Source: a virus. Taken from it: a stretch of DNA of 38,069 bases. The notes under the pieces were generated by a model, which was not told where the DNA came from, ran no database searches, and saw only the letters and a program-made list of their open reading frames with translations. The stretch is taken from positions 1 through 38,069 of IMG/VR virus record IMGVR_UViG_3300045988_128374. The stretch is one strand, 5' to 3'. Position numbers and translations under genes: made by a program. Every line of letters begins with the position of its first letter. The first letter of the stretch is position 1. Below are positions 1,415 to 38,069 of this stretch, piece after piece.

Positions 1415-1870
1415 TTATTTATCCTCCTGATTATCAATTGTTGTTTTCTGTTCTACCTGACTCTTTAAATTCTTAACAATAGGCTGCAAGAATGGTGGAA
1501 GTGCTACACCGATATCATTGATGTTTTCCAATATACTTATAATTTCGTTACAGATCAGCCATATTGCCACAACACAAGCCACTAAAAATGTAAATGGCAA
1601 TGTTATTCCAATAACACCTGCAGAATAAGAAAGGAGCTGGTCCACTATCACACCAACTCCAACTAAAAGCCACATACATATCTTTTTTGTAATTCCTTTT
1701 ATCCCCTTGTAACTATCAATCTCCTGGTTTCTAAACTTAGAAGCTACAAGCCCTGTCGCATAGTCAATTATATTGCATGTAACCAATAACAGTACCGGAA
1801 TTGCCAATATTCCCAAAGCACTTAAAATAATGCTCCACACTGTTGTTACAATAACTTTTATTTTTTCCAT
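1415..1870 (-). CDS. Holin (Phage_holin_4_1-like, multi-TM)
   Basis: Start placed at ATG 1870 (MEKIKV), after AGAAAGGA. The protein has several hydrophobic helices, the motif IIDYATG...K...G..KK, and a charged C-terminus. It lies immediately upstream of the endolysin. Confidence 0.87.
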   Translation of the reverse strand: MEKIKVIVTTVWSIILSALGILAIPVLLLVTCNIIDYATGLVASKFRNQEIDSYKGIKGITKKICMWLLVGVGVIVDQLLSYSAGVIGITLPFTFLVACVVAIWLICNEIISILENINDIGVALPPFLQPIVKNLKSQVEQKTTIDNQEDK

Positions 1871-1885
1871 CTTAAAATCCTTTCT

Positions 1886-1901
1886 GTTGCACCGGTGCAA
1901 C
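1886..1901. promoter_or_regulatory. 16-bp perfect palindrome GTTGCACCGGTGCAAC, copy 1 of 4
   Basis: This is an exact palindrome. It lies 4 nt upstream of the holin RBS and just downstream of the fibre-gene terminator. The conserved context is T-[palindrome]-TT on the plus strand. Confidence 0.6.
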
Positions 1902-1916
1902 TTTAAAATTTTTGTA

Positions 1917-1940
1917 TTAAAAAAAGACGCTTTCGCGTCT
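1917..1940 (-). terminator. Rho-independent terminator after the tail fibre gene
   Basis: The minus strand reads AGACGC-GAAA-GCGTCT followed by a T run of 7. Confidence 0.5.
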
Positions 1941-12759: not shown

Positions 12760-13836
12760 TTACTCTGCAATCTCTTCTGCAGGATCTACATCAACGAATA
12801 CAGAATCAACCTTACCATCCTTGCCATTAGGGAATACAAATGTATCACTTAACTGGCGGTTCTGATAAAGATATCCGTCTCCTTCTGTATGTGCTCCTGG
12901 TGCAAAGTAATAAATTGATGAAATCTTAGGTACTGTCTTACATGTCTGGCCACATGCAACAAGTACATTAATCTTACGTGAGCCCTGAACAGCCTTTTCA
13001 TAATATGTGGCTATATTAGCCTTTGTAGGCTTTGCCACAACTGTATAAGTGCTGTCGCTCTTAGTGTAGTATGTCTTTCCTTCTACCACATCTGTATCAG
13101 TTGTTATGGTATACTTTGACTTAAGCGGAGCAAAGCCGCCCTCTGCAACATCCCAATCGAATCTGTCATAGAATCTTTCATCATCCACAACTTCCATAAG
13201 TGTCACACCATCAATATCAGTTACACGTGTTTCAATGCCAAGACCACCTTCTGCAATCTGTGTCATTTCAATCTTACGTGTAAATTCCTTTGATACCTCA
13301 AGCTTATCCATAATGTCAGAAGATACATACATAATGAGGCTTCCATTTGCCTTATATCTTCTAAGCTTGCCTGCTGCCAGAATATGCTTAAGCTTAGCAA
13401 ATACATTCTCTGATGTATATTCTGTGGAAGCTGTTTCAGTATGATATAATTCTGTCTTCTGTGCAGCCTGTGCTACATTACTGAAAAATAATGCATCTGT
13501 CTCTGGTACTACCTGTGTCTGTTCAAATATGTGTGAAATATTCTGAATAGATGCTGTCTGATTTGTTTCATCAACATCTGCCTTATCAACCATAAACTGT
13601 ACATCTCTGTCATGTGTTACTGTGTAAGGAACATCTTTCTGGTTATATTCTCCTGTGTTCCATCCACCTGATCTCTTATGGTTCTTATAACCACTTACAC
13701 TCATCTGTGTAAAATGGAAGGTCTTGGCATCTAACCATCTGACATTGTTTGTGATAAATGGTGATGTAAGTGTGCCCTGAATAAGAATTGCTAATAATTC
13801 AGGACTCCACTGTTCTGCATAATTTAAATTTGGCAT
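12760..13836 (-). CDS. Major capsid protein (HK97-fold class)
   Basis: This 358-aa ORF lies directly after the scaffold gene. Its N-terminus (YAEQWSPELL...FHFTQMS.SGYK) matches Gram-positive siphophage capsid proteins as I recall them. Confidence 0.87.
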   Translation of the reverse strand: MPNLNYAEQWSPELLAILIQGTLTSPFITNNVRWLDAKTFHFTQMSVSGYKNHKRSGGWNTGEYNQKDVPYTVTHDRDVQFMVDKADVDETNQTASIQNISHIFEQTQVVPETDALFFSNVAQAAQKTELYHTETASTEYTSENVFAKLKHILAAGKLRRYKANGSLIMYVSSDIMDKLEVSKEFTRKIEMTQIAEGGLGIETRVTDIDGVTLMEVVDDERFYDRFDWDVAEGGFAPLKSKYTITTDTDVVEGKTYYTKSDSTYTVVAKPTKANIATYYEKAVQGSRKINVLVACGQTCKTVPKISSIYYFAPGAHTEGDGYLYQNRQLSDTFVFPNGKDGKVDSVFVDVDPAEEIAE

Positions 13837-14515: not shown

Positions 14516-14584
14516 CACTCTATCTCCTTTCCGTTTACCGCTCGTCAGCATTTTCCTAAAGTTTAGTGCCATTAAGTTTTGGGC

Positions 14585-14620
14585 ATAAAAATAGCACCCA
14601 CAGCGTATTGCTATGCGTGC
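14585..14620 (-). terminator. Rho-independent terminator between the gp7 block and the scaffold gene
   Basis: The minus strand reads GCACGCATAGC-AATAC-GCTGTGGGTGC followed by TATTTTTAT. The stem is 11 bp with one mismatch and one G-U pair. Confidence 0.5.
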
Positions 14621-14642: not shown

Positions 14643-14658
14643 GTTGCACCGGTGCAAC
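14643..14658. promoter_or_regulatory. 16-bp perfect palindrome GTTGCACCGGTGCAAC, copy 2 of 4
   Basis: This is an exact copy in the 169-bp intergenic gap upstream of the scaffold/capsid genes. It has the same T-[palindrome]-TT context. Confidence 0.6.
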
Positions 14659-20878: not shown

Positions 20879-22048
20879 TTAATCTTCATCATTTCCCATC
20901 AATAAATTTGCACCATACTCTTGTAATTCTTCTAAATAACTTTGAATTTCATCATCCAATATGCCACATTCTTTCATTTCCTTGTATAATCTTAATTTAT
21001 TATCATAATTTTCGATTTTCTTATTTTCCAAATCCATTTTTTGATTCTCTAAATTTATCTTTTTTTGTTCTACTTCTACTCCAACTGTTTTGATTTGTTT
21101 ATATAAATCTATTGGATTTGGAACCTTTATATTACCTATTTGTCCACCACTAATTACTATATATAGTCCTACAATGCCTGCTACCGCTTTAGACATTTTA
21201 CCTTTATTTCTATAGTTTTGCTCATCTTTCTTTGCATCATATGCCTTATCTAAATTTCTTTTCCCCGATGTAAAAGAAATTACACCTTTTGAATTCAAAT
21301 TAAGCATAATTGATAATTCATTCTCACCAACAACCCTTTTCATATAGCAATCTACGCAGCTCATTACTTTTGTTATTGAAGTTAAATCTATTGGTTTACT
21401 TGTATTTATATGCATTTGAAAAGAATAAGCTTCTCTCCAATAATATATAGGATATATCGTATCTAATATATATTTTCCATATTCATTTAAATTACAAATT
21501 CCCTGATATGATGATAATACTTTTAACAATTTAACATGTAGATTAGTATAATTGACTATCTTAATGATTTTAATTTTACGTCTTTTTTTATATGGGCATT
21601 TAACACTATATAATGGAATATTTTCCATATCTATTTTTGTTATTACATCAATTTCATCATCTTCGTTTAAATTATTCTGCTCATAATATTCGCCAACTTC
21701 AGCAAATGCTATTTTATTATCTTGCACTCCTGGAATCATAACAATATCGCCTATTTTTAAATTATATATGAATTTTTTACATTTACTAATTGCTTGACCC
21801 GGCCTTTTATCTCCATATATATTTTTTATATTTTCTTTAAGTATTTCAATCTGTTCATTTTTCATTGAATTGATTTCCATATTTAAATCTATTATATTCC
21901 ATCCCAATGCTACATAATTATTCTCTATGTATTCATTAAAAAAATAGCCTTTTTTTGTTCTTATCATCCAAAAATTTATATCTCCATTAATATATGGAAG
22001 TTCATAATTCAATATTTCTTTTATAAAATCTTCATTTATTTTCTCCAT
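20879..22048 (-). CDS. Unknown 389-aa protein: N-terminal sensor-like module, one hydrophobic segment, C-terminal coiled coil (accessory moron gene)
   Basis: GGGGG lies 5 nt before ATG 22048. The gene is very AT-rich compared with its flanks. The hydrophobic segment is at aa ~287-305 (KAVAGIVGLYIVISGGQIG). The C-terminus has the heptad-like sequence KKINLENQKMDLENKKIENYDNKL. Confidence 0.8.
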   Translation of the reverse strand: MEKINEDFIKEILNYELPYINGDINFWMIRTKKGYFFNEYIENNYVALGWNIIDLNMEINSMKNEQIEILKENIKNIYGDKRPGQAISKCKKFIYNLKIGDIVMIPGVQDNKIAFAEVGEYYEQNNLNEDDEIDVITKIDMENIPLYSVKCPYKKRRKIKIIKIVNYTNLHVKLLKVLSSYQGICNLNEYGKYILDTIYPIYYWREAYSFQMHINTSKPIDLTSITKVMSCVDCYMKRVVGENELSIMLNLNSKGVISFTSGKRNLDKAYDAKKDEQNYRNKGKMSKAVAGIVGLYIVISGGQIGNIKVPNPIDLYKQIKTVGVEVEQKKINLENQKMDLENKKIENYDNKLRLYKEMKECGILDDEIQSYLEELQEYGANLLMGNDED

Positions 22049-24187: not shown

Positions 24188-25429
24188 TCAAGACCTGTTA
24201 CTGTTTTTTAATGTTACATATCTTTTTAATTCCGTTATGATTGATTTGCAGTTTTCCTCGACTGCTGCCACATTGCTCTCTGACGGAATGATAAAACCAT
24301 CTGAATAATCCCTTATAAACAGCTCTATCTTTCTGCCTGCCTCTTTTATCACTCTCCAGCATTCCTGTTCCGTCTCTTCGATATTCTCTGCTGTTTCTGG
24401 TTCTTCCTGCTTTTCATCTTCTTCTGTACTGTCTTTTGTTTCCGGCATATATTCAGGATGGTTTTCAATGCTGTCCTGTCCCGGTATCTGTTCATCCTCC
24501 GGCTTTTCTGACTCTTCATCCTCTGGTATCCGGCTTTGGGGCTGTTCCGGCTTTTGAAACGCACGTACTACTTTCTTCTCTTTGCGTACTGTCTTCTTTT
24601 CCGTCTGTTGCACCGGTGCAACTTCATCTTTTTCAGGATACGGTTCGTTATACATTTCCACGTATGCCTCTTTTATATCATCAGAAGCTGTATTAAATAC
24701 CCTGCTTACTGCTGCCATGACTGAATCAGCTTCCCATTCTGTTTTTTCGCTGTTTCTGACGTTTGTAAGTGTTATTTTTTTCTCTTTTGCCCTGACTGAC
24801 ATCATAAGTCTGCCTATGCCCGCAAGCCTTACTGAATAAATCATATCCCCTGCCGGTGCAAGGGCTTCAAAAAGCTGCTCCTCATCACGGTCTTTTGCTT
24901 CATACAGCCTGTCAAATATCTCAACATTGTCATTCGCAATCTGCCTGAATGCCTTTTCAAGCTCATTCATTTCTTTCGTTTCTTCTGATGCCGCCTCTGA
25001 CTGTTCAGCAAGCAGTTCAAGATCAGATATTTTCTTTTCTTCGTCATACTCATGCTTGATGTCTGCTATTTCCGCTTTTGAAAACTCCGGCGTAAGCTCC
25101 TCGATGATTGCATCAGGAAGCTGGAGCATTTCTGCAAGCTTTGAATATCCAAAACCTCTGTACTGCTCTTTTAAATACTGCGAATTGCCTCCCTCGCTGA
25201 ATCTGTCGTTTATATTTATAAAACGTGATACCGTCGTCTTATCAATGTGGTATTCTGCTTTTGCAAATTCTATTACGTTTGAATATCCGGATTCTTTAAG
25301 GATGTCCGTATCACGTGCCTTTTTAAGAAGATAGCCTATCCTTACAAAGCCTTCTGCTGATTCCGCAAGCTGACGGTCAAGCTCTGCCTTAAATGTTCTA
25401 AAATCTTCTATGTGCTCCAGTTCGTTCAT
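24188..25429 (-). CDS. Hypothetical early protein (413 aa) with N-terminal HTH-like region (DUF3102-like guess) and a strongly acidic C-terminal half
   Basis: An ATGA overlap couples it to the PcfJ-like gene. The N-terminus reads FVRIGYLLKKARD...GYSNVIEFAKAEYHIDKTTVSRFININDRF. It contains palindrome copy 3. Confidence 0.7.
   Translation of the reverse strand: MNELEHIEDFRTFKAELDRQLAESAEGFVRIGYLLKKARDTDILKESGYSNVIEFAKAEYHIDKTTVSRFININDRFSEGGNSQYLKEQYRGFGYSKLAEMLQLPDAIIEELTPEFSKAEIADIKHEYDEEKKISDLELLAEQSEAASEETKEMNELEKAFRQIANDNVEIFDRLYEAKDRDEEQLFEALAPAGDMIYSVRLAGIGRLMMSVRAKEKKITLTNVRNSEKTEWEADSVMAAVSRVFNTASDDIKEAYVEMYNEPYPEKDEVAPVQQTEKKTVRKEKKVVRAFQKPEQPQSRIPEDEESEKPEDEQIPGQDSIENHPEYMPETKDSTEEDEKQEEPETAENIEETEQECWRVIKEAGRKIELFIRDYSDGFIIPSESNVAAVEENCKSIITELKRYVTLKNSNRS
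24607..24622. promoter_or_regulatory. 16-bp perfect palindrome GTTGCACCGGTGCAAC, copy 3 of 4 (intragenic)
   Basis: This exact copy lies inside the 413-aa ORF and encodes VAPVQ. A half-site-like CCGGTGCAAG occurs at 24853-24862. Confidence 0.55.
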
Positions 25430-27384
25430 GCTGTCTTTCTCCTTTTTCTGCTTTCCAAATAACTTACATACTGCTCAAGTAGCGGTTTTATAATCTCCTC
25501 TTCCGGCTTTGTGTCGTTGTGGCCATACCACTGCCGTATAAGAGTGCCCTCTATCTCTATGGTTATATATGGCTCATCTGCCGTACTGTCTTTTCTAAGC
25601 AGAAGAATAAATCTCCGCCCTTCGTTATAATTTTTCATATAGCCCTGTGCATCAGAACCCACACAGTGATGCAGGATTCTTCCTTCCATCACAATCTCAC
25701 CTGCATCCTTTGCCGGGCGGATTGTATAACCCGACTGCTGCCATGTGTACGCTCTGCTTATCTTTTTGCTGTAATCTGCTATCTTTGGATATTTTTCCAG
25801 CATTTCTGCCATATATTTTTCGGACCTTTTCAGTTCGTTTTCCCGCCTTATCCTCGTATACGTTTCATACAGATTACCCGGGCGGAGATATACGTCATTT
25901 GACAGATCATCACCGGCCGATATGCGTTCTTTAAGATAATCTGCATATTCACGAACGGCTTCATATTTTGTATTATAGTGACCCTGACCCATATATCTTT
26001 TAATTACATTGTCAAGCCTTTCCGGCGTAAGATATTTAAGCACAAGCTCTAGGTCACTGTAATTACCATGGCAATTAAGATAGTACATAAAACCTGTCTC
26101 CCACTGCTTGAAGGGAATACTGTTCCTGTGTGCTACATGTGTAAATTCAAGCCTGCTTGAATCTTCCCCCAGCTTTATCCAGTTAAGCTCTTCTTTTGTT
26201 ACTTTTAAGGCATCTGCTACCGTTACAGCTTTTTTATTTATTTCCTTTGTTACTCCCTCTTTCCAGAGAATTCGTCTGCATATCCCGTTTAATCCTATTT
26301 TGTAAAGAGTTTCAATCTGCGGACAGCGTGCATAGCTTACAAGAGCCTGTATTTTTGCCAGTATCCGGTCTTTCTCAAGATAAGACCGGAGAAGCGTTTG
26401 CAGCCCTTCCGGACAGTATCTTAAATCACTTTCACATACAGCATCTGCACCTATACAAGACACGTCTTTTGTCTCTACAAGTTTTCCGGGATACATTGAA
26501 CGGCTCCATGTATTTCTGTAATCTTTTATATAAAATCTTGCATATCCGCGTTTTAAAAAAATTCTTTCATACTCCCTTGTATTCCTGTTCATCATGCTGT
26601 ACCGGCTCCTTGTTACATCCGTATAAAAAGCTCTTATCAGAAGCATTCCATCAGGAAGGCACTGGTACAGAAGTGTTGTAAATGCGTCATTTGATATTTT
26701 TGCACGTCCCGCCTGTATAAGCACGCCGCTTGCACCGCATCTCTTGCATTTGTAAATTTCACCTCTCTGTGGCATATATAAAGGCCTCATTCCACATGTG
26801 CAGAAATCTTCTGTATCGGTTCTTTTTGTGCGTTCGGTATAAGTCTCACCGCACTGTGCACATGTATATTCTGCCTTATTGCCGCTTCTTTTGTAATACA
26901 TGCGGTTTGTTGCCGCTATGTCTTTTTTAACTGATTCTGAAAACTCCTGCGGTACTTCCGGTATATCGTTAAAAAGAGTCTCCATCTCGAGAGTGCTTCG
27001 GTGCTCCCTCTCCCTTGTCTTTTTATAGTCAACCTCTTCCTCGACACGGAATATATCTGCACCATATTTATGTTTTTCACCGCTGACTGCCTCGGCAAAT
27101 TCTGTTATCTTCTTTGTATCTGCATCACTTATGTAAGCATTTTTAACTTCGCTATAATACTCGTTGTTCCATCTTATCCTTTTATCCCATTTTGCAGTCT
27201 TATAGTCATAGTTAGCATAATCATTAAATCCTGCTGCCATTCTGTAAATATGGGCTTTTTCCTTCCACAGGTCAGCTATCAGATACGATTCTGTTCCAAT
27301 CTTTACAATGTCGGCTGTTATGGTACATTTTCTTTTGCCTGCCAGCTTTCTCCCTGCATATTCAAGAACGCTTTTCTTTTTCAT
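25426..27384 (-). CDS. PcfJ-like protein (652 aa) with zinc-ribbon motifs
   Basis: The C-terminus (GRILHHCVG...Y...GRRFILLLRK...PYITIEIEG..IRQWYGHND) matches the PcfJ domain as I recall it. CxxC pairs are present (CAQCGETY...CTCG and CKRCGASG). Confidence 0.78.
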   Translation of the reverse strand: MKKKSVLEYAGRKLAGKRKCTITADIVKIGTESYLIADLWKEKAHIYRMAAGFNDYANYDYKTAKWDKRIRWNNEYYSEVKNAYISDADTKKITEFAEAVSGEKHKYGADIFRVEEEVDYKKTREREHRSTLEMETLFNDIPEVPQEFSESVKKDIAATNRMYYKRSGNKAEYTCAQCGETYTERTKRTDTEDFCTCGMRPLYMPQRGEIYKCKRCGASGVLIQAGRAKISNDAFTTLLYQCLPDGMLLIRAFYTDVTRSRYSMMNRNTREYERIFLKRGYARFYIKDYRNTWSRSMYPGKLVETKDVSCIGADAVCESDLRYCPEGLQTLLRSYLEKDRILAKIQALVSYARCPQIETLYKIGLNGICRRILWKEGVTKEINKKAVTVADALKVTKEELNWIKLGEDSSRLEFTHVAHRNSIPFKQWETGFMYYLNCHGNYSDLELVLKYLTPERLDNVIKRYMGQGHYNTKYEAVREYADYLKERISAGDDLSNDVYLRPGNLYETYTRIRRENELKRSEKYMAEMLEKYPKIADYSKKISRAYTWQQSGYTIRPAKDAGEIVMEGRILHHCVGSDAQGYMKNYNEGRRFILLLRKDSTADEPYITIEIEGTLIRQWYGHNDTKPEEEIIKPLLEQYVSYLESRKRRKTA

Positions 27385-27872
27385 CAGTCTTCGCCTCCAA
27401 GATAGTAAGCACGTATAATCTTATAGGCTCTTCCCATTCCCGGAATTCCCATTTTTACTGTTGCGGTAATCCCGGCCGCCTTTACTATTTCATCCGGAAC
27501 CTGATATGCGTTTTTAAAGCTCCAGCTCAGAAGCTGTGCAATGCAGCCCTTTATGCTTTTTCCCTTTTTTCTGACCGCCACTGCCATCTCCGGATGCTCT
27601 GTAGTATATTCCCGGATATAATTTACCCAGTCTTCAACTATCTCAACAGGTTTAAGCTCTTTTGTCTCAACGTCTATCTTTCCAAGTGCCGCCATGAGAG
27701 GAGTTGCTAGCTCTGCCACGTCACCATTTATATAATCTTCAACATCCGGCTTTTCAATGCCGTTTTCTTCCGCAAGCTCATACAGTGCTGTTAAATCTCC
27801 CTGTGCAAGCTGTCCTGCGGCAGCCTCATTAAGTTTCCCAGCTGAATCAAATTCACCAAATTTATCAAACAT
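27384..27872 (-). CDS. PcfK-like protein (162 aa; same family as proteins annotated AcrIIA9-like)
   Basis: The N-terminus reads F.SAGKLNEAAAGQLAQGDLTALYELAEENGIEKPDVEDYINGD...ATPLMAALGKIDVE. An ATGA overlap couples it to the PcfJ-like gene. Confidence 0.68.
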   Translation of the reverse strand: MFDKFGEFDSAGKLNEAAAGQLAQGDLTALYELAEENGIEKPDVEDYINGDVAELATPLMAALGKIDVETKELKPVEIVEDWVNYIREYTTEHPEMAVAVRKKGKSIKGCIAQLLSWSFKNAYQVPDEIVKAAGITATVKMGIPGMGRAYKIIRAYYLGGED

Positions 27873-34023: not shown

Positions 34024-34054
34024 CTCCTTGTTATATTACTTGCTTTGAATGTTT

Positions 34055-34073
34055 ACTTGAATTAATTTCAAGT
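34055..34073. promoter_or_regulatory. Operator-type palindrome ACTTGAA-N5-TTCAAGT (perfect copy) downstream of cro
   Basis: ACTTGAATTAATTTCAAGT follows the same 7-5-7 design as the four sites in the cI/cro intergenic region. Confidence 0.55.
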
Positions 34074-34090
34074 TTAAATTCAAAAAAAAA

Positions 34091-34291
34091 TTAAAATTTT
34101 ATCTGATTAAGAGTTACACCGAAATGCTCAGCAAGAGCTCTAACTTTACTTACTGCCACATTAGATATATCTTTTTCCCATGAGCAGTATGTTTGGGGAG
34201 AAATACCGATTTTGTTGGCAACTTGCTCCTGTGTTTCGTTTTTTCTTGCTCTTAATTCTTTAACGGAGAACTGCATTTCATTTGTATTCAA
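34091..34291 (-). CDS. Cro-like XRE-family HTH regulator
   Basis: The HTH reads LRARKNETQEQVANKIGISPQTYCSWE. The gene is divergent from the cI-like gene. The start is TTG 34291 (after GAGGTGAT) or ATG 34276. Confidence 0.8.
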   Translation of the reverse strand: MNTNEMQFSVKELRARKNETQEQVANKIGISPQTYCSWEKDISNVAVSKVRALAEHFGVTLNQIKF

Positions 34292-34311
34292 CTTTTCATC
34301 ACCTCATTTCA

Positions 34312-34428
34312 ACTTGAATTATTTTCAAGCATATGTTACTTGATTTATATTCAAGTGTCAATACCTTTTTTGAATTTATTTCAAGTTTTTTTATCTTTTT
34401 ATCAATTCTACTTGAATTTTCTTCAATT
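34312..34428. promoter_or_regulatory. Genetic switch: four ACTTGAA-N5-TTCAAGT-type operators
   Basis: The sites are at 34312-34330 (ACTTGAATTATTTTCAAGC), 34338-34356 (ACTTGATTTATATTCAAGT), 34368-34386 (TTTTGAATTTATTTCAAGT) and 34410-34428 (ACTTGAATTTTCTTCAATT). Confidence 0.65.
34333..34361 (-). promoter_or_regulatory. Putative lytic (cro) promoter
   Basis: On the minus strand: TTGACA (34361-34356), a 17-nt spacer, then TAACAT (34338-34333). The spacer coincides with operator 34338-34356. Confidence 0.55.
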
Positions 34429-34440
34429 ATATTATATTAT
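34412..34440 (+). promoter_or_regulatory. Putative repressor (cI) promoter
   Basis: TTGAAT (34412-34417), a 17-nt spacer, then TATTAT (34435-34440). The -35 box lies inside operator 34410-34428. Confidence 0.45.
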
Positions 34441-36561: not shown

Positions 36562-36611
36562 TCTGAACACCGCTTTTGCAAGTAGGTGTTATTTTTGTAC
36601 CCATTTTTACT

Positions 36612-36627
36612 GTTGCACCAGTGCAAC
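36612..36627. promoter_or_regulatory. Variant palindrome GTTGCACCAGTGCAAC, copy 4 of 4, in the integrase leader
   Basis: It has one mismatch to the other three copies, the same T-[palindrome]-TT context, and lies 30 nt upstream of the int ATG. Confidence 0.55.
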
Positions 36628-36656
36628 TTCCCCAAAAACAGAAAGGAATGATTAAT

Positions 36657-37868
36657 ATGAAAAAGAAAATATCTAAGGTCCTTACATATAAGCGTGGCAA
36701 TCTATGGGCCTATCGTTTCGAATCTGCCCCTGTAGATAGCAAAAGGAAGTGGATTACCAAGAGCGGATTTAAGAACCAATCTGAGGCATATGAAGCCGGT
36801 ATGGTCGCATACACACAATATAAACAGACTGGCAAGAGCTTCACTCCATCTAATATCTCTGTATCTGATTACATGGATTACTGGATTGATAATTATTGCA
36901 AGGTCAATCTTAAAGCTAATACGGCATCAACTTACAAAAAGAAAATTGATTTATATATAAAGCCGGCTATTGGTTCATATTATCTTAAAGACATAGAGCC
37001 AAGTCTTCTCCAGGAGCTTATAAATAATCTTTTTAATACCGGAATGTCGCGAAACTCTCTCGGCAATGTTAAGGGCATTCTTACCAAGTCATTTGCCTAC
37101 GCAAAGACTACTGCAAGATTTATTAATGATGACCCTTCTGCAACTATTTCTCTTCCGCTTCCAAGAGCAAAGGCAGAGGTTAAAACCAAAAAGAAAGTAA
37201 GAGTCGTATGGACTAATGAACAGCTTGATACTGTCTTTAAAACATTTGCACAAGGACATATATATCATATGCCACTTCTTCTCGCTTATAGGTGCGGCAT
37301 GCGTCTGGGTGAGATATTTGGTCTTATGTGGGATGATATAGACTTTGATAATGGAATATTAAGCATTAACAGACAGGTACAGAATCATGATGATAAATGG
37401 TATCTGGAAAACCCTAAATATGATTCATTTCGTACCATAGAACTTGATGATACAACGCTTTCAGAACTTAAAAGGATGTACGAACATGAAAAGGAATGTG
37501 AACAGTACTATAATGAATATTACAATTATATCTACTGTGAGACACTTGAAGATGACTCTAAGAGACTTACTTATGAGCCGGCTGGCGAATCAATGCATAT
37601 GGTGCTTGTAAGAGATGATGGCTCATGGATTCAGCCAAGAACAATGATGCACTGTTTTAATGTTATTCATCACAAGCTTGGCTTCACTGAGCTTGATTTC
37701 CATTCTCTCAGGCATACACACGCTTCTAATTTACTTGCCAAAGGAGCTGATGTTAAATATGTACAAGAGCGTCTGGGACATAAAAATGTAGCAACCACTC
37801 TTGATATATATGCCCATGTCACAGAAACCATGCGTGAGCGCAACAAGGACATATTAAATACACTATAA
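36657..37868 (+). CDS. int: Tyrosine recombinase / phage integrase
   Basis: Start placed at ATG 36657 (MKKKISKV) after GAAAGGA. The catalytic motifs are RCGMRLGEI, HSLRHTHAS and LGHKNVATTLDIYAHV. An N-terminal SAM-like arm/core-binding region is present. Confidence 0.93.
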   Translation: MKKKISKVLTYKRGNLWAYRFESAPVDSKRKWITKSGFKNQSEAYEAGMVAYTQYKQTGKSFTPSNISVSDYMDYWIDNYCKVNLKANTASTYKKKIDLYIKPAIGSYYLKDIEPSLLQELINNLFNTGMSRNSLGNVKGILTKSFAYAKTTARFINDDPSATISLPLPRAKAEVKTKKKVRVVWTNEQLDTVFKTFAQGHIYHMPLLLAYRCGMRLGEIFGLMWDDIDFDNGILSINRQVQNHDDKWYLENPKYDSFRTIELDDTTLSELKRMYEHEKECEQYYNEYYNYIYCETLEDDSKRLTYEPAGESMHMVLVRDDGSWIQPRTMMHCFNVIHHKLGFTELDFHSLRHTHASNLLAKGADVKYVQERLGHKNVATTLDIYAHVTETMRERNKDILNTL

Positions 37869-37869
37869 T

Positions 37870-37947
37870 AAAAAGGCATCTGTACACACATCTCATTGTA
37901 CACATTAAATCCTAATGTGTACAAAATGTGTACAAATGCCTTTTTTT
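37870..37947 (+). terminator. Compound three-segment hairpin built from TGTACA repeats (int terminator and/or arm-site cluster)
   Basis: AAAAAGGCAT (37870-79) pairs with ATGCCTTTTT (37936-45). TGTACACA (37881-88) pairs with TGTGTACA (37927-34). TTGTACACATT (37896-906) pairs with AATGTGTACAA (37914-24). A T run extends to 37947. Confidence 0.65.
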
Positions 37948-37952
37948 CAATG

Positions 37953-37974
37953 TGTACACATTAAAATTGTACAC
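37953..37974. promoter_or_regulatory. Two further TGTACAC repeats between the int terminator and the att core
   Basis: TGTACAC occurs at 37953-37959 and 37968-37974, in direct orientation with 15-bp spacing. Confidence 0.4.
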
Positions 37975-37992
37975 ATATCAAAATCGTAAAAA

Positions 37993-38069
37993 TTAGAACT
38001 TGCCGTTGTCCGCAGCTTCCTGAATCGCAACTGCAACTGCTACTGTAGCACCAACCATTGGGTTATTAC
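37993..38069 (-). CDS. 3' end of an ORF entering from beyond the right edge (putative host target gene completed by phage DNA), partial
   Basis: The minus-strand frame is open from the window edge through the whole 55-bp repeat: ..NNPMVGATVAVAVAIQEA (core) then ADNGKF-stop (37993-37995) in phage-side DNA. Confidence 0.35.
   Translation of the reverse strand, partial: NNPMVGATVAVAVAIQEAADNGKF
38015..38069. repeat. Terminal 55-bp direct repeat, right copy (putative att core)
   Basis: It is identical to 1-55 and lies 146 bp downstream of the integrase stop. Confidence 0.9.

Follow-up and report, generated by a model that had tools for sequence, protein, structure and literature searches.

A dispersed 16-bp palindrome in a temperate phage genome as the predicted DNA site of a 413-aa early protein family

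Introduction

Why does a temperate phage carry one and the same 16-bp palindrome before its holin gene, ahead of its scaffold and capsid genes, in the leader of its integrase gene and inside an early gene? The question is raised by the IMG/VR virus record IMGVR_UViG_3300045988_128374, of which the whole stretch of 38,069 nucleotides was analysed and is called the window below. A first-pass annotation of the same letters had pointed out the palindrome, GTTGCACCGGTGCAAC, and had considered an operator set for one dimeric DNA-binding protein, an RNA hairpin and weak antisense terminators as possible roles. The early gene with the internal copy encodes a protein of 413 amino acids (aa), and was at that time taken merely as the host of this copy. 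The comparisons described here suggest that the palindrome is very probably the cognate DNA site of the 413-aa protein family itself. The fuller statement, that the four copies are a set of double-stranded DNA sites for this protein and that the set has a regulatory role, is predicted with less assurance and is considered reasonably probable.

Results

Four palindromes and their linkage to the 413-aa gene

All copies reported by the first-pass annotation, exact ones at 1886, 14643 and 24607 and a one-mismatch copy at 36612, were refound. Copy 1 (1886-1901) is located in an intergenic gap with the terminator of the tail-fibre gene on one side and the Shine-Dalgarno sequence of the holin gene on the other, and copy 2 (14643-14658) in the gap between a 120-aa open reading frame (ORF), which follows a MuF-like gene, and a hairpin with a T-tract before the scaffold and capsid genes. 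Copy 3 (24607-24622) lies inside the 413-aa gene and encodes V-A-P-V-Q, residues 270-274, at the start of a disordered linker. Copy 4 (36612-36627) differs by one central mismatch, G to A, by which CCGG becomes CCAG (GTTGCACCAGTGCAAC), and is placed in the leader of the integrase gene int, between a terminator hairpin and the int Shine-Dalgarno sequence. No further copies with up to two mismatches were found in the window, and weaker copies or half-sites, the CI/Cro region included, did not exceed the level expected by chance. The palindrome was the sole long dispersed repeat of the window in a k-mer survey. A chance origin, already dismissed at first pass, is unlikely, as 100 dinucleotide-preserving shuffles of the window gave 0 palindrome matches.

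The sites are phage-borne and linked to the 413-aa gene. This gene (24188-25429, minus strand), which encodes the proposed cognate binder, follows two others in an early trio: a gene for a 162-aa protein (27384-27872, minus strand), the first of the three, and a gene for a PcfJ-like 652-aa protein with Cys-rich zinc-ribbon-like motifs (25426-27384, minus strand), the second. In 240 loci fetched by the motif, the fetched loci being stretches of up to about 21 kb each, the window proteins most often encoded near the motif were the 413-aa (61), the PcfJ-like (48) and the 162-aa protein (47). When viral loci were fetched by the 413-aa protein instead, all 80 of 80 carried the site, almost always 775-810 nt into the gene, and 62 of the 80 had one or two further copies within 10 kb on either side. 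The 64-kb phage MT835488.1 has only the trio in common with the window and carries four exact copies, all in coding linkers. Three loci, L345, L368 and L377, had no detectable PcfJ or 162-aa neighbours; in these a helix-turn-helix (HTH)-like domain belongs to a larger protein and the site was still found right after the part encoding this domain, from which it follows that the site goes with the gene of this domain and not with its neighbours.

Selection on nucleotides

The sites are under nucleotide-level selection. Pairs of 413-aa homologues with less than 60% amino-acid identity used the identical codon at identical residues in 96.5% of cases (362/375) within the five site codons, as against 46% elsewhere in the gene, and the 16-mer stays exact while the flanking residues diverge. 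The family consensus was A-RTTGYACYRGTRCAAY, and the sites vary by transitions at symmetric positions only (1/16, 5/12, 6/11 and 8/9), a pattern of variation which would fit DNA better than RNA. Single substitutions, counted in the sense orientation, were mismatch-forming for an RNA pair in 26 cases and wobble-forming in 12. The hairpin was predicted to fold with -6.7 kcal/mol and its recurrent GTACAAC variant with -2.3 kcal/mol, and no Rfam match was obtained at the palindrome sites. A structured RNA element, whether nut-like, Shine-Dalgarno-adjacent or of an Rfam family, is disfavoured since pairing-breaking changes outnumber wobbles, the stem is weak and Rfam gives no match.

The intrinsic terminator scan called none of the four sites. 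The suggestion of weak antisense terminators thus found no support, the stem being weak and the coding copies being followed by TTC or TTG only, without a T-tract. Readings of the motif as a sigma-54 or sigma-70 promoter were likewise discarded, because the hexamer spacings are unsuitable and no promoter lies beside copies 1 and 2.

Co-variation of site and putative recognition helix

The sites co-vary with a putative recognition helix of the 413-aa family. This helix comprises residues 61-78 (HIDKTTVSRFININDRFS; 25196-25249, minus strand), and its sequence class predicts the palindrome type. Loci for this comparison were fetched by protein only, with a second fetch that reached distant homologues, and were sorted by the residues of the helix. 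Helices of the form [DSN]K[TDG]xVSR[FY]I were accompanied by TTGCACCGGTGCAA at 107 of 108 loci, eight of which also had a CAC/CGC hybrid site. The form S[ASPK]S[TS][IVA]SRF[MI], observed as ISRFM, VSRFM, ISRFI and ASRFM, went with TTGCGCCGGCGCAA at 20 of 23 loci, and SESAASRFM with three copies of TTGCGACGTCGCAA, while GTGCGACGTCGCAC, TTTCGCCGGCGAAA and ATGCGCCGGCGCAT were each carried by one lineage. Nearly all homologues with the same helix type as that of the window had the copy within the gene. The TTGCGCCGGCGCAA class, too, has a copy within the gene, where it encodes (I/V)APAQ, and further dispersed copies, among them some in the same context of hairpin, TTTTTATGGCC, site and Shine-Dalgarno sequence. 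Pure site types were never mixed in one genome; only half-site hybrids occurred. On the co-variation and the three loci that lack the neighbours, the sites would be read by the 413-aa family protein sooner than by the neighbouring proteins, CI/Cro or a host protein.

In the phiCs5676-1-like loci L326-L329, GTGCGACGTCGCAC was found about 515 nt into the homologous gene. Its arms are those of the N15 SopB site GTGCGAC-N4-GTCGCAC, joined without a spacer. This identity over 7-bp arms is probably a coincidence.

The 413-aa protein family

At least 2990 homologue clusters at 90% identity were present in public data, almost all of them unnamed and none with a Pfam domain. Searches with the 413-aa protein gave nothing significant in Pfam, PHROGs, NCBIfam, PADLOC, PDB sequences (single and profile) or two Foldseek searches. 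The AlphaFold2 models consist of an N-terminal helical HTH-like domain (predicted local distance difference test, pLDDT, 88), an alpha/beta middle part, a linker and a C-terminal helical hairpin, and the disordered linker of about 80 residues begins exactly at VAPVQ.

There were a few weak hints of a partition-type protein. These were a match to the partition-type HTH model NF033725 in NCBIfam (E 0.019), the source name UPF0137 among the homologues, and non-significant Foldseek matches to the DNA-binding domains of VirB (3w2a) and SopB (3mkz), with E-values of 3.6-8 and template-modelling (TM) scores of 0.23-0.31. A recurrent weak match to G1_gp67_C was located in an acidic helix and was treated as noise. 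A second database search with the N-terminal domain returned fragments only, and a homologue of this domain on the small plasmid pCBU3 had an uninformative context. Two distant members of the family carry an RNA polymerase alpha C-terminal domain (alpha-CTD; PF03118, E 8e-10 and 6e-20) after the HTH-like domain, and such fusions hint at a link between the family and transcription. The relatives of 620-650 aa with alpha-CTD, at L368 (9989-11875) and L393 (9941-11794), also have Cys-rich stretches and a conserved C-terminal 'LKNNDQR...YYRY' domain.

Distribution and contexts of the motif

An exact-match scan of IMG/VR yielded at least 120 stretches with the palindrome, most of them from human-gut samples and often with two or three copies per stretch. 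Among the matches listed by a genome scan, the palindrome occurred mainly in Lachnospiraceae (Roseburia, Acetatifactor, Lachnospira and others), with 1-4 clustered copies per genome; a minority of scattered matches in unrelated phyla corresponded to the chance level in 596 Gb. The proteins encoded beside the listed Lachnospiraceae matches belonged to PcfJ-like, integrase, portal, terminase and capsid families, and no recurrent host gene neighbourhood was seen there. From this position beside phage genes it follows that the motif is prophage-borne and not a general host repeat. The first-pass annotation had named a common dispersed host repeat without positional bias as refuting its proposal, and this is not what was found. 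Host repeats of the type of repetitive extragenic palindromes and bacterial interspersed mosaic elements (REP/BIME), or of the uptake type, were rejected on the same clustered copies among the matches listed. The 16-mer was found in no paper in a literature search, and its 12-mer core only in unrelated Drosophila papers. Megablast with a 24-kb query found nothing in INPHARED.

About half of all copies were located inside ORFs. The coding frame was almost always GTT GCA CCG GTG CAA, that is V-A-P-V-Q, in Pro/Glu/Lys-rich linkers of many unrelated proteins, with TTC or TTG after the site. Roseburia phage Jekyll (LR596902.1, locus L323) has its one exact copy at 2100-2115 in an endolysin linker, in the frame S-C-T-G-A-T. 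The non-coding copies fill minimal gaps, in the order of stop codon or terminator, A-palindrome, Shine-Dalgarno sequence and start codon. The commonest gene directly after an intergenic copy was that of the 162-aa protein, the first of the trio (12 independent contexts), and in other phages the palindrome lies 15-21 nt upstream of its start codon. Next in frequency were ArpU/RinA-like late regulators, TerS, holins and integrases.

Conservation at equivalent positions in related phages, proposed as a check at first pass, was borne out, since three of the window positions recur in relatives with differing flanks, namely the one within the 413-aa gene, that of the int leader and the one ahead of the conserved ACAATTTAATATTAGTTA...hairpin that precedes the scaffold and capsid genes. 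The position of copy 2 was kept in many relatives as the palindrome followed by ACAATTTAATATTAGTTAWTAAGCACRCATRGCA, and that of copy 4 with CCGG, CCAG or ATTG... variants. The upstream flank of copy 1 recurs in locus L019 with a different downstream module.

Local features at the four copies

As first described, copy 1 is situated between the intrinsic terminator after the tail-fibre gene (1925-1940, minus strand, upstream of the copy in the sense direction) and the ribosome-binding site of the holin gene (1415-1870, minus strand, with its ATG at 1870). The spacing of 4 nt given for it did not hold, as the palindrome directly abuts the Shine-Dalgarno sequence AGAAAGGA at 1878-1885, with 0 nt between them. 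The terminator reported for copy 2 was recovered as a hairpin with TATTTTTATGCCCAAAA (14575-14611, minus strand), downstream of the copy in the sense direction and just before the scaffold start; copy 2 lies 25 nt upstream of this hairpin and T-tract. The location of copy 3 inside the 413-aa gene stands. The additional half-site claimed at 24853-24862 consists of codons for the protein-conserved motif ALAPAG, in which L189, P191 and G193 are invariant, and thus needs no explanation at the level of DNA. Copy 4 follows directly upon a terminator-like hairpin with TATTTTTGTACCCATTTTT (36567-36603, plus strand) and precedes the tyrosine integrase gene int (36657-37868, plus strand), with the ribosome-binding site at 36640-36647 in between as reported; the distance from the end of the copy to the int ATG (36657) is 29 nt and not 30.

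All four copies share the plus-strand context T-[palindrome]-TT, which on the minus strand, the sense strand of the lytic genes, reads AA-palindrome-A. The asymmetry by which they had been described as co-oriented 19-mers is therefore real. The base 5' of the site was A in 112 of 119 unique oriented contexts. On the other flank, coding copies had C or A (Gln with Pro or Gln after it), Shine-Dalgarno contexts had AG, and int leaders often had T, which gives an 18-bp palindrome. The 19-mers are thus largely an A-flanked motif whose second flank is overridden by local constraints, the lytic genes all sharing one strand.

A second recurrent element was observed at 14575-14598 and 36592-36603 of the window and in many loci (e.g., L042 3600-3645, L065 and L296 17811-17840). 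It consists of a variable hairpin followed by TATTTTTATRCCCAA(AA), usually immediately upstream of the palindrome; at copy 2 it is found downstream, the hairpin at 14575-14611 being an instance of it. The CCCAA conserved after its T-tract is atypical for plain terminators. In the CGC-class phages, TTTTTATGGCC is analogous to the TATTTTTATRCCCAA companion motif.

The prophage

The window is a complete temperate siphophage prophage. A 55-bp perfect direct repeat (GCTTCCTGAATCGCAACTGCAACTGCTACTGTAGCACCAACCATTGGGTTATTAC) at 1-55 and 38015-38069 represents the attL/attR cores, and since these stand at both ends the window comprises exactly one integrated prophage. No tRNA was present in it. The genes from 328 to 34291 are on the minus strand and include the Cro-like gene, recombination genes, a DnaD-like gene, the trio, a late regulator, and terminase, head, tail and lysis genes; the CI-like gene, a 382-aa ORF and the tyrosine integrase gene are on the plus strand. 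Clusters of (A/T)TTGTACACA repeats in both orientations were found just inside the att ends, at 199-236 and 37882-37990, and probably serve as arm-type sites of the integrase, a protein with an Arm-DNA-binding domain. Spurious microRNA-like Rfam matches came from the right-hand cluster. A likeness of the palindrome to these repeats was judged coincidental because MT835488.1 shares no integrase.

The CI/Cro region (34050-34440) has at least five inverted repeats of the type ACTTGAA-N6-TTCAAGT between and beside the Cro-like and CI-like genes, and the genetic switch is likely to use these as its operators. Even at three mismatches the palindrome was not detected in this region. The palindromes were thus rejected as operators of CI/Cro or of an L5-type immunity repressor, as the switch operators differ and MT835488.1 is without a CI/Cro homologue.

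Two further observations were made in the window. A 389-aa ORF (20879-22048, minus strand) between the late regulator and the small terminase gene lies in a stretch of very low GC content (about 0.29), matches the PADLOC candidate defence family PDC-S02 (E 1e-12) and is likely to be a moron or defence gene. The 10-12-mer GGCAGCAGGC(A/T) or its complement was found at 13368, 16461 and 18233, as well as in MT835488.1 and in loci of several groups. It recurs several times per phage genome across unrelated subgroups, and may be either a favoured Ala-Ala codon string or a Chi-like signal.

Discussion

An operator set for one dimeric DNA-binding protein, one of the roles proposed at first pass, is the kind of explanation favoured here. 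The phage HTH proteins then listed as its binders are probably the wrong ones, because MT835488.1 has none of them and yet carries four exact copies, because the CI/Cro switch uses the different operators ACTTGAA-N6-TTCAAGT, and because the palindrome type co-varies with the helix of the 413-aa family. We suggest that the C-terminal helical hairpin makes the 413-aa protein a dimer and that a single recognition helix (about residues 61-78, ...DKTTVSRFININDRF...) would recognise each half-site xTTGyAC. One site is kept in the gene of the protein itself, in a coding stretch tolerant of it (VAPVQ), and the others at module starts, those of int, of the scaffold and capsid genes and of the holin gene; in relatives, sites are also found before the trio, the late-regulator genes and the gene for the small terminase subunit. 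The protein, made from the early lytic operon, would then occupy all four sites and could act as a global operator or roadblock factor at the module boundaries and in its own operon. Its own operon might thereby be autoregulated, int be silenced in lytic growth, and transcription into the head and lysis modules be gated. Such a specific regulatory outcome is put forward tentatively, its chances being somewhat below even.

Several observations weigh against recognition of the palindrome by the 413-aa family. The N-terminal domain had no significant Pfam, PDB-sequence or Foldseek match, and its label as HTH is putative, resting on the helix pattern and the weak hints given above. The co-variation of helix and site partly follows clades, with perhaps only 4-6 independent switches of specificity, and other linked genes could co-vary with the palindrome too. 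A large subfamily with the helix TKSPTSRFM (21 loci) has the trio and no detectable palindrome. Phage phiCs5676-1 carries a distant trio, but neither the palindrome nor a repeated k-mer was found in it; close relatives of this phage were searched for and none were found. Phage Jekyll has its exact copy without the trio, possibly as a relic of a lysis-module exchange. An RNA stem, too, would be preserved by the symmetric changes that separate the site classes, and the promoter scan gave no sigma-70-like promoter adjoining copy 1 or copy 2.

The rival explanations differ in what they make of the same sites. The 413-aa protein could be an origin-binding protein or replisome organiser with the origin in its own gene, the other copies being auxiliary loading sites. 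The site does lie in the linker-coding part of the gene, in likeness to lambda O and SPP1 G38P; the trio comes directly after a DnaD-like gene, with no other obvious initiator, helicase or primase in the window, and in phiCs5676-1 it directly follows a 'replication initiation protein' and RNase H. We nevertheless consider this unlikely, as copy 3 is a single palindrome without an iteron array or an AT-rich unwinding region beside it, the cumulative GC skew makes no turn at 24.6 kb, the extra copies are at gene starts, in the int leader and, in MT835488.1, in four unrelated coding linkers, and the alpha-CTD fusions of relatives point to transcription. Alternatively, the palindromes may be centromere-like or condensation sites, on which the protein loads, spreads or bridges to organise or position the phage DNA without promoter control. 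A few dispersed 16-bp palindromes per replicon, one of them in the binder's own gene, would suit such a function, as would the modelled architecture, in which a long flexible linker stands between a DNA-binding domain and a C-terminal helical module, and the weak partition-type hints. Phage N15 has four separate inverted-repeat (IR) palindromes of similar style, the SopB centromere sites GTGCGACCNNGGTCGCAC (PMC7205306). This explanation too is rather unlikely: neither a ParB/Srx N-terminal domain nor a ParA-type ATPase was found in the module or the window, the 413-aa protein is encoded in the lytic early operon, and the element integrates by a tyrosine integrase at 55-bp att repeats and so has no obvious need for partition.

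Three explanations do without a DNA-binding reader of the 413-aa family. A conserved host factor of Lachnospiraceae, which the first-pass annotation had allowed as binder, might read the motif and let the phages plug into a host pathway of regulation or DNA handling. The restriction of the listed matches to Lachnospiraceae-associated elements, and the copy in Jekyll without the trio, are in its favour. We regard it as improbable, since the listed matches are 1-4 clustered copies per host genome beside phage genes, with no recurrent host gene neighbourhood, and since related phages use other palindromes, uniform within a genome, which track the helix of a phage protein. Folded in RNA as a hairpin beside the Shine-Dalgarno sequence, with a 6-bp stem and a CCGG loop, the palindrome could be recognised by a phage protein and serve translational control, processing, 5' stabilisation or nut-like antitermination. 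Many intergenic copies do abut a Shine-Dalgarno sequence, the loop positions are the most variable (CCGG, CCAG, CTGG and CTAG), and pairing is kept in the changes between site classes. Such adjacency is, however, expected anyway because the intergenic gaps are minimal; about half of the copies fall within ORFs, the conserved copy of the int leader is transcribed in the opposite sense, and the stem energy, the substitution counts with the recurrent GTACAAC variant and the Rfam result given above make this role very improbable. Finally, the 16-20 bp might be stretches of microhomology that serve as linkers for module exchange between phages, with no reader in trans. In intergenic site pairs whose left flanks were at least 85% identical, homology was lost immediately across the site in 33%, against 0-18% at control offsets; some sites clearly shared one flank and differed in the other, be it the upstream or the downstream one, and the window encodes a recombination module. 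The control is an imperfect one, since phage gene boundaries are mosaic junctions anyway. A first, ungapped breakpoint test showed no excess over controls, the later excess is confined to intergenic copies (2% of coding copies are breakpoints), and the frozen in-gene copy, the genome-uniform site classes and the helix co-variation are left unexplained. Microhomology as the whole explanation therefore has little probability, and the breakpoint excess is more probably a by-product of the conservation of the site.

If the 413-aa family is the reader of the palindromes, its pairing with them has consequences beyond the window. The family is found in temperate phages of Lachnospiraceae, a dominant family of the human gut whose phage biology is experimentally almost untouched, and the pairing of protein and site, present in thousands of gut Lachnospiraceae prophages, has apparently never been described. 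The correspondence of helix class to palindrome class amounts to a predicted specificity code, in which an unknown protein is paired with its predicted site, and would offer a first entry to the coordination of integration, head assembly and lysis in these prophages. Sites kept in frame in linkers (VAPVQ/VAPAQ) would mean that some 'conserved peptides' are actually DNA signals, by which annotation and selection analyses may be misled, and the exact 16-mers mark this phage group in metagenomes. A bolder and rather doubtful proposal is that this is a so far undescribed system of protein-DNA recognition, highly prevalent among Lachnospiraceae prophages of the human gut, which acts as a phage-wide organiser of transcription or as a mark of 'genome identity'. 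It would comprise an HTH-like family, neither ParB-like nor repressor-like, with allelic specificity classes, each with its own palindrome in the gene and at the module boundaries, and might either tether or exclude RNA polymerase at module starts, or tell the DNA of the phage from that of a competitor.

Comparison with known systems

Among described systems, KorB of the IncP plasmid RK2 is a global regulator of the ParB family which binds short perfect palindromes, the OB operators; these are dispersed over the plasmid, partly at gene starts and partly at a distance from promoters. The case proposed here from sequence is alike in having a protein of a mobile element and several dispersed palindromes on the same replicon. 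KorB differs by its ParB/Srx N-terminal domain and its partners KorA and IncC, none of which were detectable here, and the present element is an integrating prophage with many sites in frame in coding linkers. The SopB sites of N15 are similar as well: there too a temperate phage has a 16-18 bp palindrome in four copies, with a single phage protein as reader, in the present case a predicted one. N15, however, is a linear plasmid outside the chromosome, with a SopA ATPase and sites that serve partition, in contrast to the integrase and att repeats of the window, where no ParA/SopA partner was found. The neighbours of the 413-aa gene, encoding the PcfJ-like and the 162-aa protein, have no P-loop family matches, and the sole ATPase in the window is an SMC/RecF-like 480-aa protein of the recombination module. 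The ParB-type domain (PF02195) was detected by Pfam and NCBIfam scans neither in the 413-aa protein nor in 30 homologues, which sets it apart from the SopB proteins of N15 and of F with its sopC sites; on the absence of this domain and of a ParA partner, membership in the ParB/KorB/SopB family was rejected.

Other systems share single features with the palindromes. In Bacillus subtilis, a parS site of ParB/Spo0J is located inside the spo0J gene, and a 16-bp palindrome inside the coding sequence of its own binder, with few further copies elsewhere, is the arrangement seen here. Without its central CG the motif becomes GTTGCACGTGCAAC, which fits the parS pattern GTTNCACGTGNAAC, but its half-site spacing is off by 2 bp, and here the protein is phage-borne, encoded in a lytic operon and without the N-terminal CTPase domain of ParB. 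The stoperators of mycobacteriophage L5, about 30 asymmetric 13-mers that are oriented with transcription, are bound by the immunity repressor gp71 and have been proposed to block transcription elongation. They too are copies of one short site that occur throughout a phage genome, for the most part in small gaps between genes; the present sites are instead palindromic, about four per genome and often inside ORFs, and their candidate binder is an early lytic protein. For lambda O with ori-lambda, and for SPP1 G38P with oriL and oriR, the gene of the early DNA-binding protein contains, in its linker-coding segment, the site which that protein binds, and in SPP1 oriL in gene 38 is accompanied by a second, distant site. 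These origins are repeat arrays beside an AT-rich region, whereas here a single palindrome is found at each of about four places, including gene starts.

As with proteins of the ParB family, palindromes of the predicted cognate type are present on the same replicon, including one in the gene of the protein itself, and this holds family-wide together with the co-variation of the helix. By analogy, the best reading is that the system would work like KorB with its OB operators, or like the centromere sets of SopB and ParB, while standing outside those families. What is new here is a common uncharacterised family with allelic DNA specificities, whose predicted sites are unusually often placed in frame in coding linkers.

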